Source: a virus. Taken from it: a stretch of DNA of 64,000 nucleotides. A program made the position numbers and the translations under genes. Under the pieces are notes generated by a model that was not told the DNA's origin, did not search any database, and worked only from the letters and a program-made list of their open reading frames with translations. Positions 2,931 through 12,750 of this stretch are shown here, one piece after another (position 1 is the first letter of the stretch; each line of letters starts with the position of its first letter). Location: IMG/VR virus record IMGVR_UViG_3300027741_000025, positions 1 through 64,000 of that record. One strand, given 5' to 3'.

Positions 2931-3332
2931 TCAGTCATGATGCTTTATTAAAGAAACCACCATATCTTTGATTTCGGGCGATACAAATCGATCTTCTTTG
3001 TCAACCAGAGTATCAGTTTCTGGGTGATAAAAATAAATATTATCTCTTGTTTTTACAAAATAAATATCGCCTCTCTTAAGATACCCAGAACCCATTTTGG
3101 GATCAATTAAACTAACTTTTGTCTGGCGAGCATAATTTCTCAAAACATCTGCCATTGCAGGATTGTTTGTCTTTGGAAATTTTCTTATTGTTAAGTCTGG
3201 GGAACTTACCAGTTTTATAACTTCTGATTCATTGCCGTTAGTTGAGGACAAATTTTTATTATCAGTATAACTCGGATTATCAAAATGAAAAAATTCATTT
3301 TTAATACTTAGCCATTCATTAAAACTTTTCAT
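2931..3332 (-). CDS. Tagged hypothetical protein, paralog of 2057..2545
   Basis: MKSFNEWLSIKNE start; AAGGA upstream; clear paralogy. Confidence 0.8.
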   Translation of the reverse strand: MKSFNEWLSIKNEFFHFDNPSYTDNKNLSSTNGNESEVIKLVSSPDLTIRKFPKTNNPAMADVLRNYARQTKVSLIDPKMGSGYLKRGDIYFVKTRDNIYFYHPETDTLVDKEDRFVSPEIKDMVVSLIKHHD

Positions 3333-3394: not shown

Positions 3395-4339
3395 ATGAAA
3401 TTTTATCAATTAGACCAAAAAATACAAGAAAATAATAACTTTAAATTAGCAGCAAAGTATATTATTGAAAACAATATAAATCTTAATGAATTCCTAGACA
3501 ACATATTGATTGTATTAAGTGAAAGTGAAGAGAATCCAGGATTCTTTCAAAGAATAGGGCGAAACATTTCAAACATGTGGAATAACTTCAGGGGAAATCC
3601 ATATGATGTTGAAAGTGTAACAAAAGCTTTACAAAAAGTAACTCAGTTTTTAAGTGGAAACGAACAATTAAAAAAAACTTATATCGATGAAATAAACTCT
3701 TTGGCAAATGTTGTCAAAAACATACAAGCAAAAAGTAAACCAGTAACACAAGGATCATCAGAAAAGTCAGAACCAAGCTCAGAAGCTCCAAAAAACGAAG
3801 AAGAATTGATACAAGGTTATATGAAAAGGCTCACTTATGGAAAGCCAATCGAGTCAATACAGGGCGGTCCTCACGAAAAATCAACTCGTCTTTATGCCGA
3901 AGTTTTGGCAAAACAAGATCCTCAGGAAGTTGAAAATACAAAAAACAAGTTAATTCAGGATTTGAAAGATAAAGTTGCTATGGTTGAGAAACTTGATCCA
4001 AGATCGAAACAAATTTTCGGACATGCTGAAATAAAAAAAGTTCTTGATCATGAAACCTGGGCTGTTTGGGATATTGGCAAACAATTGTATATGATGCAAA
4101 ATCCTTCAAAAAGTGGAGAAGGATATACTGTGGGAAATCCATTAAAAGATAAAAATATACAAGAAGATATAACAGACAGAATGGTAGGATGGGCAATAAC
4201 ACTAGGGGGGAGGATGGATCAAAACAATCCGTCAGTAATATCACCCAAACCTATTTATAGTAGCTTAAGATTAACAGAAATTGGTAGACAAGTTGTTCGC
4301 TCTGCAAAAAGCGGAGGCATTGATTTTCAAGATGAATAG
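3395..4339 (+). CDS. Putative internal/ejected protein; N-terminal domain homologous to 20547..21131
   Basis: Start reassigned to MKFYQLDQKIQE; AA..[IM][IV]E..I....F pattern followed by an amphipathic GFF helix. Confidence 0.7.
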   Translation: MKFYQLDQKIQENNNFKLAAKYIIENNINLNEFLDNILIVLSESEENPGFFQRIGRNISNMWNNFRGNPYDVESVTKALQKVTQFLSGNEQLKKTYIDEINSLANVVKNIQAKSKPVTQGSSEKSEPSSEAPKNEEELIQGYMKRLTYGKPIESIQGGPHEKSTRLYAEVLAKQDPQEVENTKNKLIQDLKDKVAMVEKLDPRSKQIFGHAEIKKVLDHETWAVWDIGKQLYMMQNPSKSGEGYTVGNPLKDKNIQEDITDRMVGWAITLGGRMDQNNPSVISPKPIYSSLRLTEIGRQVVRSAKSGGIDFQDE

Positions 4340-4344
4340 TACAT

Positions 4345-4449
4345 CTATACCAACCCCTTCTTAATTTTTTCTATAAATATATTCATGTTTTTCTTGTTGT
4401 AAACGTGACCAAAAAGATTCATCTCGGTCCAGACTTCAAAGGGGATGTT
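4345..4449 (-). pseudogene. 3' remnant of a TnsA-like endonuclease gene (copy 1 of a 98-bp direct repeat)
   Basis: Translates NIPFEVWTEMNLFGHVYNKKNMNIFIEKIKKGLV*; FxVxTE resembles the end of the TnsA N-terminal domain. Confidence 0.55.
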
Positions 4450-4454
4450 ACAAC

Positions 4455-5141
4455 TTACCATTTTGGAGATCTTACTTTTGAGTTAGGTCCACCTAAATCA
4501 AAAATCACATAGGTGCCGTTTTCCCTTTTTCCTATATTTCCTGGATGGAAATCATCAATTGCTACTCCTGATTTTTTTACATCTTTTATTATTTTATCAA
4601 AATTGAATTTATTTTTAAGAATTGAAACAGCGTTTTGATAAATTTTATTTTCTGGATTTGATTCTTCAATTTGATCCCAAGACATTGTCATAAATGGATA
4701 AGTATAATTCATACTTTCGGGCAGGTCTTCCGAAACAGTATCGATTGCTTCATAATAAGTTTTAGATTCTAGTGCATCTATTGGATATATTCTTTCTTGA
4801 ACAATTATTCCAAAATTTCCATTATTCCATCTATCCCATTTTGGAACTTCGTATGTAAAATTTATTACTTTATATATTCTACACATGTAATTGTATTGTT
4901 TATTTTCTAAGTGTTTGGATATCCATAATTCATTTGCATCATATGTTGCTTTTAAAACTTCTCCATTTTGTAATAAATATGCTTCTCCGTTATCCCCTCT
5001 TCCTAATAATTTTATATTTTCTATATTTATTCCTTTTTCATTGAGAAGATTTTTATACTCATTTAATAGAATTTTGATTCTGAGGTGGTAGTTTGCCCTT
5101 GGATCATCCTCGTTTAATAACCAATTTTTAAAACTTTTCAT
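4455..5141 (-). CDS. Protein kinase-like protein with N-terminal tag
   Basis: LGRGDNGEAY Gly loop, VLK, DFHPGN catalytic loop, FDLG; start MKSFKNWLLNE. Confidence 0.8.
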   Translation of the reverse strand: MKSFKNWLLNEDDPRANYHLRIKILLNEYKNLLNEKGINIENIKLLGRGDNGEAYLLQNGEVLKATYDANELWISKHLENKQYNYMCRIYKVINFTYEVPKWDRWNNGNFGIIVQERIYPIDALESKTYYEAIDTVSEDLPESMNYTYPFMTMSWDQIEESNPENKIYQNAVSILKNKFNFDKIIKDVKKSGVAIDDFHPGNIGKRENGTYVIFDLGGPNSKVRSPKW

Positions 5142-5148
5142 AACATAT

Positions 5149-5253
5149 TTACACAAACCCCTTCTTAATTTTTTCTATAAATCTGTTCATGTTTTTCTTG
5201 TTGTAAACATGACCAAAAAGATTCATCTCGGTCCAGACTTCAAAGGGGATGTT
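5149..5253 (-). pseudogene. 3' remnant of a TnsA-like endonuclease gene (copy 2 of the 98-bp direct repeat)
   Basis: NIPFEVWTEMNLFGHVYNKKNMNRFIEKIKKGFV*; 95/98 identical to 4352-4449; in-frame stop just upstream. Confidence 0.55.
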
Positions 5254-5261
5254 TAATTTGA

Positions 5262-5357
5262 CTCAGATGGAGCTGGTGCGAAAAGACAAATAAAATTATT
5301 GTTTAAATATTAAGAAATAATTTTAAAGTTATCCTTCGAGAAGGAGCGAAATTTTAT
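5262..5357. other. Two synonymously recoded capsid-gene fragments around an AT-rich hairpin (candidate guide/antisense RNA or operator sites)
   Basis: 5262-5282(-) encodes FAPAPSE, matching MCP 7275-7295; 5334-5357(+) encodes LREGAKFY, matching MCP 7014-7037; all mismatches synonymous; inverted repeat at 5291-5325. Confidence 0.75.
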
Positions 5358-6484
5358 GTGGATTTTAATTCGGATTGTTTGATTTTATATCTTTCTTTGT
5401 GCCTCAAAGATTCACAGTTTTTGCACTTATCTCTATAGCCATCGCGCCTAGATTTGTCTTTACTAAAAAGATCAAGAAGTTTTATTTCGTTACACTTTTT
5501 ACATTGCTTTTTGCCTTCCTTTTCGTAAGGATTTTCTTTAATCAAATGCGGCTTAGGTTTACTTCCTGATATGTGTCCACCTTCTTTTTCGCAGATGTAT
5601 CTTCCATTTCTTTTGATGTTTTTATCGTAGCTTTTCCTTAAAACAGAGTGATTTTCTTTACAATATTCACAATAAACATTAACTTTATCTAAAGCTATTT
5701 TTTCATGGTAGTGTTTTTTGGCTTTTTTTCTATTATTTTCTCTCCTATATTCATGATAATCAATTCCTGTGTTTTTTGTTCTGTAATCATCTGCCCATAT
5801 TCGAATCTGATTATAGTTCATTCCTAAATCATCTTCTGTCATTAATTTAAAGAGCCAATTATTCTTGAGAGCATATTCTTTGCTGTCTTCTATTTGATTT
5901 TTAAACTCATCCACTCTCTGCTTAGGTTTCATTTCAATTGCTTTTTTCTCGCCACTTTTATAAGTCACAAGACAGTCCAGACACCTACCTCTTCCGTTTA
6001 TTTGAAATCCTAATTGAGTTTCGAAATCCAATACTGTTTCATCTGAATCCAATATCCAGCAAAGTCTAAGTTCATAAGAAGAATCATACGAAAGCTTTCT
6101 GCCCGTTTTTTTAGATTCAAATACTCCTCTTCTTTTAGACTTATCATATTTATGTACAGAATGGTTTTCCGCTGTCATCACAGAGAGTTTATTCTTAAGT
6201 TTCTTTCCTTCCTCAGTAAGGTAAAAAGCTATTTTTGCTTCTGCCATTTTTCTGCATGTTTCTGGCGAACGTTTATAAGATGTGGATTCTGATATTCTTT
6301 TTTTTCCCTCCTTGGTGTAACAACAAGTTCTGCATTTGAATGTTCCATGATTTTTTATATTTCTGGCGGCTGAGTCTTTGTTTGTTGACATTTGATTTTT
6401 GCAGCCTTCAACACCGCAAAACATAGAGATTTTGTCTCTAAAACCATATTTTTTGTATTTAATTTCAAATTCTTCGATATTCAT
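5354..6484 (-). CDS. TnsA-like PD-(D/E)XK endonuclease with Zn fingers and a NUMOD3-like motif (putative free-standing homing endonuclease)
   Basis: GxFxSKK..YDSSYE..LD....E..LDCLV...IEMKP..FKLMTE; several CxxC pairs; C-terminal CKKC..F..D..R.DG....CKNC. Confidence 0.75.
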   Translation of the reverse strand: MNIEEFEIKYKKYGFRDKISMFCGVEGCKNQMSTNKDSAARNIKNHGTFKCRTCCYTKEGKKRISESTSYKRSPETCRKMAEAKIAFYLTEEGKKLKNKLSVMTAENHSVHKYDKSKRRGVFESKKTGRKLSYDSSYELRLCWILDSDETVLDFETQLGFQINGRGRCLDCLVTYKSGEKKAIEMKPKQRVDEFKNQIEDSKEYALKNNWLFKLMTEDDLGMNYNQIRIWADDYRTKNTGIDYHEYRRENNRKKAKKHYHEKIALDKVNVYCEYCKENHSVLRKSYDKNIKRNGRYICEKEGGHISGSKPKPHLIKENPYEKEGKKQCKKCNEIKLLDLFSKDKSRRDGYRDKCKNCESLRHKERYKIKQSELKST

Positions 6485-6846
6485 TTGTTTTGCTTTTTCT
6501 CTTCGAATGTGTTCTTCATCGACTCTGATATTTTTTGTTTTTTCTCCTCTGACGATTTCGGCATCTTCAAGCCCTTATTCCATCCTGCCGAGTATCCAAA
6601 AATGAGATTATTCTCCCAGATTTCAGGATGATCTTTCATAAATTGACTCTTTTTATTAATAACATCTTCGGTTTGAATGGCTTTTATAGCCTTGGAAAGT
6701 TTCGCGCGACACTCTAAAGTTTTTTCTTTACCTATCTGACAACAACTTTTACATATCTTTAAAAATGGAGGCTCATTCTTCATCCATTTCTTTTTAGCCT
6801 TAACAGTTCTTTCCTCACCACATTCAGGACATTTAATTTGATACAT
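6481..6846 (-). CDS. Zn-ribbon plus NUMOD3-type DNA-binding protein
   Basis: CPECG, CKSCC, WNKG..SEEKKQKISESMK; AAGGAG before ATG 6846; ATGA-coupled to the nuclease. Confidence 0.7.
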   Translation of the reverse strand: MYQIKCPECGEERTVKAKKKWMKNEPPFLKICKSCCQIGKEKTLECRAKLSKAIKAIQTEDVINKKSQFMKDHPEIWENNLIFGYSAGWNKGLKMPKSSEEKKQKISESMKNTFEEKKQNK

Positions 6847-6865
6847 ATTTTTCTCCTTCACTAAT

Positions 6866-6894
6866 ATATTACCATTAAGTCAAATTCCACGCAA
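6866..6894 (-). promoter_or_regulatory. Possible sigma70 promoter for the nuclease cassette
   Basis: TTGCGT-N17-TAATAT with TG extension. Confidence 0.4.
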
Positions 6895-6920: not shown

Positions 6921-6958
6921 TAAAAAAACCCCGTGGTCTTTCGACCACAGGGTTTTTG
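6921..6958 (-). terminator. Intrinsic terminator after the major capsid gene
   Basis: AACCCTGTGGTC-GAAA-GACCACGGGGTT followed by a T run. Confidence 0.9.
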
Positions 6959-6980: not shown

Positions 6981-8414
6981 TTACACGATAAAATTGGCTA
7001 TGTTGAGGCGAGCGTAGAACTTTGCTCCCTCTCTAAGCAACTTCTTCCCATACCTTGTTAACAGTCCTTTTCTTGGGGAGAAGGAATCTGGGTCTAACAC
7101 AACTGGTGTCTGTGTGAGTGGCACGTATGGGCAGTAGAAATATCCGCTGTCCATATAGCTGTCACCCTTATAACCCATAAGGAGCTGTCCGGTTGGGAAC
7201 AGTGGATCCTTATACAGTCTCCAACGATTGTTTACAGTACCGACATACTGGATGCCGAGTGAGCTTGTAAATGTTTCTGAAGGAGCTGGTGCGAAACCCG
7301 CAGTAGCTGTTTCGAAAACTGAAGCAACTTCTGGTGATGTAACAATGAAGTTAGCACCGCCACGAAGTGTCTTACGATGGATCACGTTGCTGACTTCAAC
7401 AACCTTGACGTATAGTGATTCATACTTTTCCTTGATGGTATCACCAAGAGCAGTATTGAAATCCCAAGCTGAAACAGTACCAGCGTTATTGCGGAGGTCA
7501 CCAAGAACTTCACGATCGATTTCAAGGTTGATTTCCTGAGCAAGAACGGCAGTTAGCTCAGCCTCGGCGTCGAGGTTGTGCTGTGAGCGAAGATCTTGCT
7601 GAGCTTCGTAGCTCCAAACTGCCTTCAGTTTGCGAGTCTTAGCGGCAATTTCCTGGCTCTCGATTGTCAGATTGATCTCTGGCATATCGGGGTTGTTTTC
7701 CATGTTGTATTCATAGCTGATTACAACCTTTGAACCACCCGATGAACCTGTCCAAGTTAGTGCAAGAGCACCATCAGCTAGGCTGAGTGTACCAGCAGTA
7801 ACATAAGCACCACCACTAACGTCAACGCTGGTAAGACTTAGGCTGCTGCTGTTTGCAGGAACAACGAATGTCTGGATAACGTTAACACCATCATAGACGG
7901 TACCAGTGACAGTACCAGCAACAACTGGAACGTGCTCAAGTGTAGCACTTGTGACGTTGCCCGAAACACTGGCGTGAACTTCGTTCTGAACGAACTGATG
8001 TGAATAGAAAACGTCAAGGTTAGCAGTGCCGTCAGCAAGCTGCTGTAGTGAGTTAGCATCATCGCCGGGGAAGCCGACTTTGTTGCTAGCACCACGGACC
8101 GCACCCTTGTCGCTTCCGTATCTAAAACGGAGATAGTAAACGAGACCGGTTGGTCCGAGCAATGGCTGGACTGAAACGATCTTGTTTGCAATCAACTGTG
8201 GATAAACTCTACGAACGAGTGGGATGCTGATTCTCTTGAATTGAGCAACGTCACCTGTGTCAGTAGCAGACTCATTGATGAGTCTCTGGTTTTCAAGAAG
8301 TACGGCTGTATTGGATCGGACAGTACGATCTTCGATTCCATCTAATAAGCCAGTCTTCTTCCAACGAGACTCTAACTCCTTAGCCTCGTTTAGAAATTTA
8401 GCATTGATATTCAT
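6981..8414 (-). CDS. gp23: Major capsid protein, T4 gp23-like
   Basis: LLENQ, LVRR..P.LIA..IVSVQP, AKTRKLKAVWS.E..QDL, EINLEIDRE, FYCPYVPL, GLLTRYG. Confidence 0.97.
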   Translation of the reverse strand: MNINAKFLNEAKELESRWKKTGLLDGIEDRTVRSNTAVLLENQRLINESATDTGDVAQFKRISIPLVRRVYPQLIANKIVSVQPLLGPTGLVYYLRFRYGSDKGAVRGASNKVGFPGDDANSLQQLADGTANLDVFYSHQFVQNEVHASVSGNVTSATLEHVPVVAGTVTGTVYDGVNVIQTFVVPANSSSLSLTSVDVSGGAYVTAGTLSLADGALALTWTGSSGGSKVVISYEYNMENNPDMPEINLTIESQEIAAKTRKLKAVWSYEAQQDLRSQHNLDAEAELTAVLAQEINLEIDREVLGDLRNNAGTVSAWDFNTALGDTIKEKYESLYVKVVEVSNVIHRKTLRGGANFIVTSPEVASVFETATAGFAPAPSETFTSSLGIQYVGTVNNRWRLYKDPLFPTGQLLMGYKGDSYMDSGYFYCPYVPLTQTPVVLDPDSFSPRKGLLTRYGKKLLREGAKFYARLNIANFIV

Positions 8415-12118: not shown

Positions 12119-12454
12119 ATGAAATCTTTTCAAAAGTTTATTGAAAGTCTTGACACTGGTCTTCGTGGAGAACTTGAAAAAAGCGTTGGAAATGCTTCTT
12201 TTAATCAGGATCAAGAAAAAGCTATAGCAACTGTTACCAACTTGATCATGATGGCAGCCAATGAATCACCAGCCAGACTCATGACTATGTTGAAAACACT
12301 TAGTTCAAGTGAGCCAGCCATGAAAGCTATTTATGATCAAATTGATGTTAGTGCACTAAGAATGGCTGCTAAGAAGCACGTCAGCCCAGAAGCTGTAGAC
12401 GATGACAACATGATTGCCACATCACCAGATGATGCTATGAGACATGGTGTCTAA
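12119..12454 (+). CDS. Tagged hypothetical protein
   Basis: MKSFQKFIE start. Confidence 0.8.
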   Translation: MKSFQKFIESLDTGLRGELEKSVGNASFNQDQEKAIATVTNLIMMAANESPARLMTMLKTLSSSEPAMKAIYDQIDVSALRMAAKKHVSPEAVDDDNMIATSPDDAMRHGV

Positions 12455-12750
12455 TGAAAAGTTTTAATGAGTGGGTTTTAACAGAAGAAGCTAAGAAATC
12501 TTCTCCTAAAAAGAAGGTTGAAAAAAAGTCTTCTTCAAAAAAAGAAGACGTTAATACCACTAATAAAATTCATGCTGTAATGGATATTGCAGAAAGTATT
12601 CAACATGTGTTTAAAAAATATACTTTGAACACAAGAAAAGATGCTTGGAGAAAATTAAACACTCCAAAAGCAAAAGAACTTTTTGAAAAATTGCTCATAA
12701 ATCCCGATAGATCTCTCAACACTTTCAGAAATATAGCCACTGAAAAATAA
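12454..12750 (+). CDS. Tagged basic hypothetical protein
   Basis: MKSFNEWVLTE start; TAATG overlap; Lys-rich. Confidence 0.8.
   Translation: MKSFNEWVLTEEAKKSSPKKKVEKKSSSKKEDVNTTNKIHAVMDIAESIQHVFKKYTLNTRKDAWRKLNTPKAKELFEKLLINPDRSLNTFRNIATEK

Follow-up and report, generated by a model that had tools for sequence, protein, structure and literature searches.

A TnsA-like nuclease cassette and capsid-gene relics behind the major capsid gene of an uncultured T4-like phage: probable traces of a homing-nuclease contest

Why should two short, silently recoded pieces of capsid gene lie directly behind a nuclease gene? The question is raised by a 64,000-nucleotide stretch of viral DNA (the window), the first 64 kb of the 144-kb IMG/VR virus record IMGVR_UViG_3300027741_000025, a record estimated to be ~29% complete. 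The minus strand of the window carries a T4-like head module with a gp23-like major capsid protein (MCP) gene and, upstream of it, a gp21-like protease gene and a neighbouring open reading frame (ORF), both conserved in relatives. Behind the MCP gene a terminator, a zinc-ribbon ORF, a TnsA-like nuclease ORF and a kinase-like ORF follow in this order on the same strand, and the two capsid-like pieces, f1 and f2, stand at the end of the nuclease gene around a hairpin. A preliminary description of the locus took them for a device that aims the nuclease at competitor capsid genes. We consider it probable that they are instead relics of a contest between homing nucleases behind the MCP gene, in which a TnsA-like cassette replaced an HNH gene.

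This reading is carried by the mosaic structure of the locus, which emerges when the window is compared with the contigs of relatives (L-numbered loci), among them L011, which bears an HNH nuclease gene, and L003, which bears a TnsA-like one. Across the gp21-gp22 region the window is 97.3% identical to L011 and 76.3% identical to L003, and the body of the MCP gene behaves in the same way (96.9% and 79.3%). Over the last 84 nucleotides (nt) of the MCP gene the relationship is reversed, with 74.7% identity to L011 and 95.2% to L003, and the zinc-ribbon and nuclease genes, both absent from L011, are 93% and 89% identical to those of L003. The crossover falls 94 to 85 nt before the MCP stop codon (window positions ~7068-7077), with the last ~85-94 nt of the window's MCP gene, the terminator and both cassette genes all matching TnsA-bearing relatives; the terminator itself is homologous to the post-stop sequence of L003 and L004, not to that of HNH-type genomes. 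L016 presents the reciprocal arrangement: its MCP body is L004-like, and from about position -52 its tail is of the HNH type. By this comparison, the MCP tail and cassette of the window read as a co-conversion tract set in an HNH-type backbone.

Both the occupant of the site and the capsid tail that accompanies it are exchangeable. Among ~80 relative loci scored for the nuclease type behind the MCP gene, the site after the stop codon holds a TnsA-like nuclease, an HNH nuclease or no nuclease, in a patchy pattern that disregards MCP relatedness. The MCP tail allele tracks the cassette type across MCP backbones that are 80-100% identical, and each cassette type carries its own post-stop terminator. 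As had been claimed beforehand, the cassette-linked tail differs from rival alleles by silent changes only. Together, the mosaic, the linked tail allele and the patchy occupancy form the signature of free-standing homing with co-conversion and competing nuclease classes. They support the earlier suggestion of a free-standing homing-type nuclease beside its target gene, which is probably the MCP gene.

In the model we propose, the sequence behind the MCP stop codon would be a landing zone disputed by no fewer than two selfish nuclease cassettes, unrelated to each other, one composed of the TnsA-like nuclease and its zinc-ribbon partner and the other of an HNH-type nuclease, each taking along its own silently different last ~50-90 nt of the MCP gene. 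The nuclease would cut the tail of a rival MCP allele, the linked allele being resistant, the cassette-bearing genome would then serve as the template for repair of the break, and cassette and linked tail would be copied in jointly. In the window's phage, a TnsA-type cassette from an L003-like donor would have displaced the HNH gene that the closest relatives still keep. A border module would close the landing zone on its far side, whichever kind of cassette precedes it, its two fragments being capsid 3′ relics of other alleles, left by earlier invasions beside a stub of the HNH gene's end. The same invasions would have piled up the tails of a short TnsA-like gene, two in number, with these capsid relics. 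The features of the locus are collected in Table 1.

Table 1. Features of the window at and behind the MCP gene, in minus-strand order
Feature	Position	Strand	Basis or comparison
gp23-like MCP gene, 477 amino acids (aa)	6981..8414	-	Pfam Gp23, E 1e-87
MCP's own FAPAPSE codons	7275..7295	-	
MCP tail, apparently co-converted, allele linked to TnsA-type cassettes	6984..7070	-	95% to L003/L004, 75% to L011
MCP's own LREGAKFY codons, TnsA-cassette-type allele	7014..7037	-	
Intrinsic terminator after MCP, G+C-rich	6924..6957	-	terminator scan
Zinc-ribbon protein, 126 aa if started at GTG 6861	6481..6861	-	
TnsA-like PD-(D/E)xK nuclease, 376 aa; zinc module at the N-terminus, repeated Cys-rich modules at the C-terminus	5354..6484	-	
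Divergent 3′ end of nuclease gene	5354..5383	-	homology to L003/L004 ends near 5383
f1, inverted relic of MCP codons 460-467 (LREGAKFY), HNH-type allele	5334..5358	+	MCP of L016
A-T-only hairpin between f1 and f2	5291..5325	.	common to HNH-gene 3′ flank in L010-12, L096
f2, direct relic of MCP codons 374-380 (FAPAPSE)	5262..5283	-	MCP of L048
Relic, last 34 codons of short TnsA-like nuclease gene, copy 1	5140..5253	-	114-nt direct repeat, 92% identical
Kinase-like gene between the two relic copies	4455..5141	-	variable cargo, absent from relatives
Relic, nuclease-gene tail, copy 2	4336..4449	-	

The label TnsA-like, already given in the preliminary description, is borne out by three lines of evidence. 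The nuclease matches the Pfam family Tn7_TnsA-like_N (PF08722) at 27.4 bits, just above the cutoff of 26.5; the residues SSYE138, D170 and E184-x-K186 (the ExK motif) are invariant across 17 homologues; and an AlphaFold model with a mean predicted local distance difference test score (pLDDT) of 81.6 is matched by Foldseek to Tn7 TnsA (1f1z) with E 1.5e-5 over 128 aligned columns at 23% identity. The homologues, found at ~17 distinct loci, are 30-91% identical and always lie directly behind the MCP gene. Both ORFs of the cassette are intergenic, lying after the MCP stop codon and before the next gene, and no group I intron was found, with nothing above threshold in Rfam for such an intron or for any other known RNA. 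We therefore treat the enzyme as a putative free-standing homing endonuclease, a class for which a Cys-rich modular build is typical (PMC10448857); the literature that we searched holds no description of a TnsA-like free-standing phage homing nuclease. The N-terminal module flanking the core varies between homologues, a case of domain shuffling. In L007, L009, L054, L077, L087 and L038 another N-terminal domain of ~250 residues takes the place of the zinc module, and the homologues of L023, L031 and L057 have neither. A second, weak TnsA_N-like match lies in the same record outside the window (G000:C1:125822-126160, 31% identity to residues 118-222).

The zinc-ribbon gene accompanies the nuclease in L003-L006, L008 and L102, where it is 72-93% identical, and in L046-type relatives the zinc ribbon is fused into the nuclease ORF. 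Judged by these associations, its product is probably a DNA-binding partner or module of the nuclease. Its likelier start is the ATG at 6846, which is preceded by a GAAGGAG ribosome-binding site, over the GTG at 6861. No Pfam or PHROG family was found for the protein. The NUMOD3 label that had been attached to the cassette is unsupported, as neither ORF has a Pfam match to that family even at E up to 5 and the resemblance, G-x-K-x-S-E-E-x-K-x-K-I-S, is by eye only.

With regard to the wider affinities of the phage, the closest database match for its MCP is LR756511, an uncultured and unannotated 595-kb phage whose MCP is 73% identical, and the best annotated matches, at 38% identity, are to Flavobacterium phages. 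No cultured relatives were found, and the nuclease had no match in INPHARED.

The capsid-like fragments are present as first described. The f1 piece (5334-5357, plus strand) encodes LREGAKFY with six mismatches to MCP positions 7014-7037, f2 (5262-5282, minus strand) encodes FAPAPSE with three mismatches to 7275-7295, and all nine of these differences from the phage's own MCP gene are silent. The hairpin has arms at 5291-5306 and 5310-5325, which are 88% complementary through A-T pairs only. The f1 piece overlaps the nuclease stop codon (5354-5356), and the motif TTTCGCwCCnnCTC has three sites in the 144-kb record, namely f1 read on the minus strand, f2 and the MCP site. As f1 agrees with the MCP gene of L016 at 24 of 25 positions and f2 with that of L048 at 21 of 22, the fragments appear to be pieces of other capsid alleles; the proposal that they represent a relative's allele rather than self holds, and the comparative matches settle, at the level of sequence, that both derive from MCP coding DNA. 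Copies of f1 are 25/25 identical in the flanks of L016, behind an HNH gene, and L102, behind a TnsA-like gene. The f2 core is unchanged in six other copies (two in L010 and one each in L011, L012, L096 and L016) and has one substitution in L102. The f2 box of the window's closest relatives has ...PAPCE, which makes the exact seven-residue match of f2 to the MCP particular to the window's genome; its reading in L016 and L102 is APAPSET.

Perfect matches in the MCP genes of related phages had been anticipated, yet a search of IMG/VR for exact copies of f1 and f2 found none, in MCP genes or elsewhere. When the query was a 21-nt f1 core with one degenerate base, only the contig of L016 was matched in IMG/VR, and in the metagenome collection four stretches were recovered: L102, two from L016's contig and one other, which lacks an MCP or nuclease homologue. 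A 17-nt f2 core gave 12 stretches in IMG/VR, with the true element on four contigs (L010-12 and L096); the other eight are apparent chance matches with no similarity past the 17-mer. Neither a sigma-70 promoter nor an intrinsic terminator was called at the hairpin (5291-5325). A small plus-strand ORF of 4-8 codons, lying behind a Shine-Dalgarno-like GAAGGAG in f1, was set aside as it is unconserved among the window, L016 and L102.

Comparison of the flanks shows to which element the fragments belong. Among TnsA-bearing loci, within the 4.5 kb searched behind each MCP gene, they occur only in the window and the metagenome contig L102; the ~15 other homologue loci lack them, and the 3′ flanks of the nuclease homologues are mutually unrelated. 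The same sequence is found behind the HNH gene. The window's nearest relatives, L010-12 and L096, have an MCP that is 99% identical in protein and ~97% identical in DNA over the gene body (in L010-12 over gp21-gp22 too), lack both cassette genes and carry instead a 260-aa HNH-type ORF (PHROG HNH endonuclease, E 2e-8), followed, as in the window, by the hairpin and a FAPAPSE-type box. Their first, f1-type box was lost through a 31-nt deletion between 7-nt direct repeats. In L016, whose MCP is 86% identical to that of the window, the HNH gene is followed by a LREGAKFY-type box, a different spacer, the second box and the sequence of window positions 5253-5154, and in L102 the TnsA-like cassette is followed by this L016-type module, the hairpin being swapped for the other spacer in both. 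The left edge of the module falls at the last two codons and the stop of the HNH gene (L016/L096). The same eight bases (5354-5361) persist behind the TnsA-like gene of L102 and supply the stop codon of the window's nuclease. A search for further relatives of the L016-type HNH gene returned the same five contigs only. The border module is independent of the TnsA-like nuclease, and its relics may act as passive right-hand homology for cassette exchange. At L010:7484-7550 a second copy of the hairpin and FAPAPSE-type box replaces the start region of a neighbouring 310-aa gene, with its ATG removed; the element has thus moved or been copied at least once.

Relics of both nuclease and capsid genes extend beyond this module. 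The peptide encoded by the two nuclease-tail relics of the window corresponds to the C-terminal end of the L029-type nuclease, which is intact, and at 88-93% identity the peptide is also present in L033 and L073. Both relics also provide the ribosome-binding site of the next gene, copy 1 serving the kinase-like gene. The 114-nt block is likewise present in L016, L003, L033 and L073.

To survey capsid relics, 4.5 kb downstream of every MCP gene was searched for matches of at least 12 nt or at least six residues to the MCP of the same genome, and 13 of the 17 islands obtained map to the last 105 MCP residues. In L017 the MCP stop is followed at once by FYARLNIA in a recoded, direct copy. In L048 a direct repeat of ~57 nt, made up of the last 28 nt of the MCP gene, the stop codon and ~30 nt downstream, flanks an insertion of ~1 kb (L048:6407-7480) with a 313-aa ORF for which no Pfam family was found. 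L060 and L065 contain inverted copies of FCPRKGI(LT), LLREGAKFYA and FYARLSIA. Such MCP-tail relics of the relatives, in either orientation, lie beside other inserted genes or none.

Some further observations concern the same zone. In L017, L021 and L067 a recoded direct FYAR..IA copy occupies the first 30 nt after the stop and runs into the terminator stem, and a degenerate version (TTTTACAC...) follows the MCP stop in the window and in other TnsA-type cassettes. A tandem 72-nt repeat of inverted MCP-tail pieces (FYARLSIA, LKESAKFYA) at L060:3079-3250 is placed between the MCP terminator, a transfer RNA (tRNA) gene and an HNH gene in convergent orientation. Just past the relic zone there is a tRNA gene at L065:3822-3894, L096:1616-1689 and L060:3330-3400; the window has none. 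A leader peptide, MKSF[NK][NE]WL..., opens many unrelated genes of the window, among them the kinase-like gene (4455-5141) and those at 2522-2545, 2906-2932, 3309-3332 and 12454-12474, and the leader DNA recurs at gene starts in L004 and L016; it looks like a recombination or targeting tag.

Several points weigh against the homing contest as we have drawn it. We infer from co-conversion tracts only where the nuclease cuts and that the linked allele is resistant. Moreover, f1 is inverted, whereas a model based on the yeast WHO elements considered below predicts direct relics, and no nuclease gene accompanies the inverted tail pieces of L065 within the available 800 nt. When L016 and L102 are compared, the f1 box and the preceding 8 nt are identical at 33 of 33 positions and the f2 region at 27 of 28, with ~26 of 34 for the spacer, and this better preservation of the boxes hints at constraint or at their repeated refreshing. 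The differences among f2 copies fall mostly (4/6) at would-be wobble positions. Finally, the border module may once have been part of the HNH cassette, or may be older than both cassettes.

Preservation of this kind would also be expected if the inverted capsid-tail box were a functional cis element, which we regard as unlikely. In this alternative, the box forms a long duplex with MCP codons ~458-468, on read-through transcripts or in trans (as a copy from the nuclease 3′ untranslated region), and the duplex could govern how the mRNA is processed or how stable it is, or shield the nuclease gene from late capsid transcription, with nuclease genes merely inserting into the loop. The predicted duplexes of MCP tail and box reach -26 kcal/mol in the window, -38 in L016, -37 in L102 and -31 in L065, compared with -11 to -15 kcal/mol (standard deviation ~3) for shuffled boxes; however, any inverted copy automatically gives a strong pairing energy. 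Inverted copies of the same MCP codons are found in separate lineages (L065, L060, L064 and L038), sometimes ahead of the terminator and at most 24 nt from the stop codon. Against this, the window, L064 and L065 have a strong terminator separating the two arms, any resident cassette puts 0.9-1.7 kb between them, and there is no box in LR756511 or in most nuclease-free loci. The mismatches are at wobble sites only, as expected if a non-coding arm follows constrained codon positions, yet no compensatory change was seen, the box of all three genomes having GCG whatever the local allele. That the inverted box is a working element, either as an antisense or pairing partner of these codons or as a second, inverted nuclease target, seems to us distinctly improbable; in the second-target form, two cuts could remove a rival nuclease gene already in place, so that the invader takes its position.

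The preliminary description read the 3′ flank of the TnsA-like gene as the source of a dual-guide or antisense RNA, or as a set of decoy or operator sites, aimed at competitor capsid genes. Of that interpretation, the relative's allele, the homing-type nuclease and the silently different linked tail stand, and the guide, antisense or decoy module falls. It can claim the near-exact match of f1 to the rival HNH-type MCP allele, from which the cassette-linked allele differs silently, and the fact that in the window and L102, which differ in MCP background, the module stands behind a TnsA-like gene. Nevertheless, the ~15 other homologue loci have neither the hairpin nor an MCP-matching fragment in this flank, and in L016, L096 and L010-12, which have no TnsA-like gene, the module comes after an HNH gene that is unrelated to it. 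Flanks with a constant hairpin and varying fragments had been envisaged, whereas we found unrelated flanks, a hairpin that is not conserved alongside the boxes, and boxes that are fixed; these are identical between genomes with different MCP alleles, which argues against any retargeting. Neither an Rfam family nor a conserved scaffold was found, and the combination of conserved flank RNA and variable guide that characterises RNA-guided systems (TnpB/IscB, CRISPR) is absent. Furthermore, the nuclease has zinc-module arrays of its own, of the kind used for protein-based DNA recognition (PMC10448857). The comparative test that the preliminary description itself named largely refutes the guide model, which we now hold to be very improbable, and removes a tempting, unsupported claim of an RNA-guided TnsA-like nuclease.

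There is equally little to be said for the cassette as a Tn7-like or other transposon, with the LREGAKFY codons of the MCP gene and the inverted f1 as terminal inverted repeats. The TnsA-like fold would suit it, and the MCP site and f1 do form an inverted repeat of 18/24 around the cassette and of 21/22 around the HNH gene in L016. Yet this best copy brackets a different nuclease, the repeat is missing from the ~15 other homologue loci, the left "end" would fall within an essential gene, and the left boundary is a graded co-conversion tract with no sharp end. No TnsB- or TnsC-like gene lies nearby, the neighbours being the MCP gene, the zinc-ribbon ORF and the kinase-like ORF, and no unrelated genomic site was found to hold this cassette between the same repeat ends and with target-site duplications.

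Coincidence in A+T-rich intergenic DNA can practically be dismissed as the origin of f1 and f2: the within-window BLAST E-values are unimpressive (0.48 and 16), but LREGAKFY is, besides one true repeat, the sole isolated exact 8-residue island in the 162 long frames of the 144-kb record, ~5 chance 7-mers per genome make a second MCP island within 50 nt of the first unexpected, the islands lie 50 nt apart and at most 1.7 kb from their source gene, and coincidence is refuted by comparative matches that are near-exact to another MCP allele for both fragments and by boxes that are conserved in other genomes.

A contest of homing nucleases would explain the different histories of the body and tail of the capsid gene, a matter of consequence for the use of gp23 as a phylogenetic marker. 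It would also provide a clear natural case, from uncultured giant T4-like phages, in which two selfish nucleases of unrelated kinds oust one another from the end of the capsid gene.

Among known systems, the closest setting is that of the free-standing endonucleases found in T-even phages, for which co-conversion and the targeting of one gene by different nuclease classes have been described, and of which segD sits between T4 genes 23 and 24 (PMC2988022). The site is the same here, behind a gp23-type capsid gene. As in the intronless homing of SegF, SegG, MobE and Hef, an intergenic nuclease gene stands beside a conserved essential gene, its presence or absence is discordant with the genomic backbone, the end of the flanking gene lies in a linked tract of apparent co-conversion, and nuclease classes compete. 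The cassette differs from the T-even endonucleases in its TnsA-like PD-(D/E)xK core, where those have GIY-YIG or HNH domains, in its separate zinc-ribbon ORF and in the target-gene relics and nuclease pseudogene tails downstream; the phage here is uncultured. Barth et al. (2023, PMC10448857) also reported nuclease genes at the borders of genetically exchanged stretches, in ICP1-like phages and in others. With the ICP1-like nucleases the present one shares repeated Cys-rich DNA-binding modules and a position beside capsid or other essential genes at recombination boundaries; those are T5orf172/GIY-YIG and AP2-HNH proteins, and TnsA is absent from the main text of that study. With Tn7 TnsA (1f1z) it shares the fold of the nuclease core and the E...D...ExK catalytic pattern, whereas adjacent TnsB/TnsC partners and transposon ends, with terminal inverted repeats in all copies, are lacking, zinc modules flank the core, and the gene behaves as a homing gene.

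The mode of action most closely resembles that of the yeast WHO elements, in which every invasion exchanges the 3′ end of FBA1 for a new one (Coughlan et al. 2020, PMC7282813) and moves older nuclease genes and FBA1 3′ fragments downstream, the downstream fragment serving as right-hand homology (PMC7282813). Here too, the target gene shows discordant histories for its body and its tail, its 3′ end is replaced, older nuclease genes and 3′ fragments of the target are displaced downstream in a decaying cluster, and a downstream fragment may act as right-hand homology. The differences are that WHO nucleases are eukaryotic, intein-derived LAGLIDADG-zinc-finger proteins, a type not represented by the TnsA-like core of the cassette, and that WHO relics are direct and long, whereas those described here measure 22-35 nt and f1 is inverted. 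The cassette works like a WHO element while standing outside the WHO family, and extends this style of homing to phages. On these comparisons we would place it among the free-standing homing endonucleases as a new member, one that adds the TnsA fold to the group.

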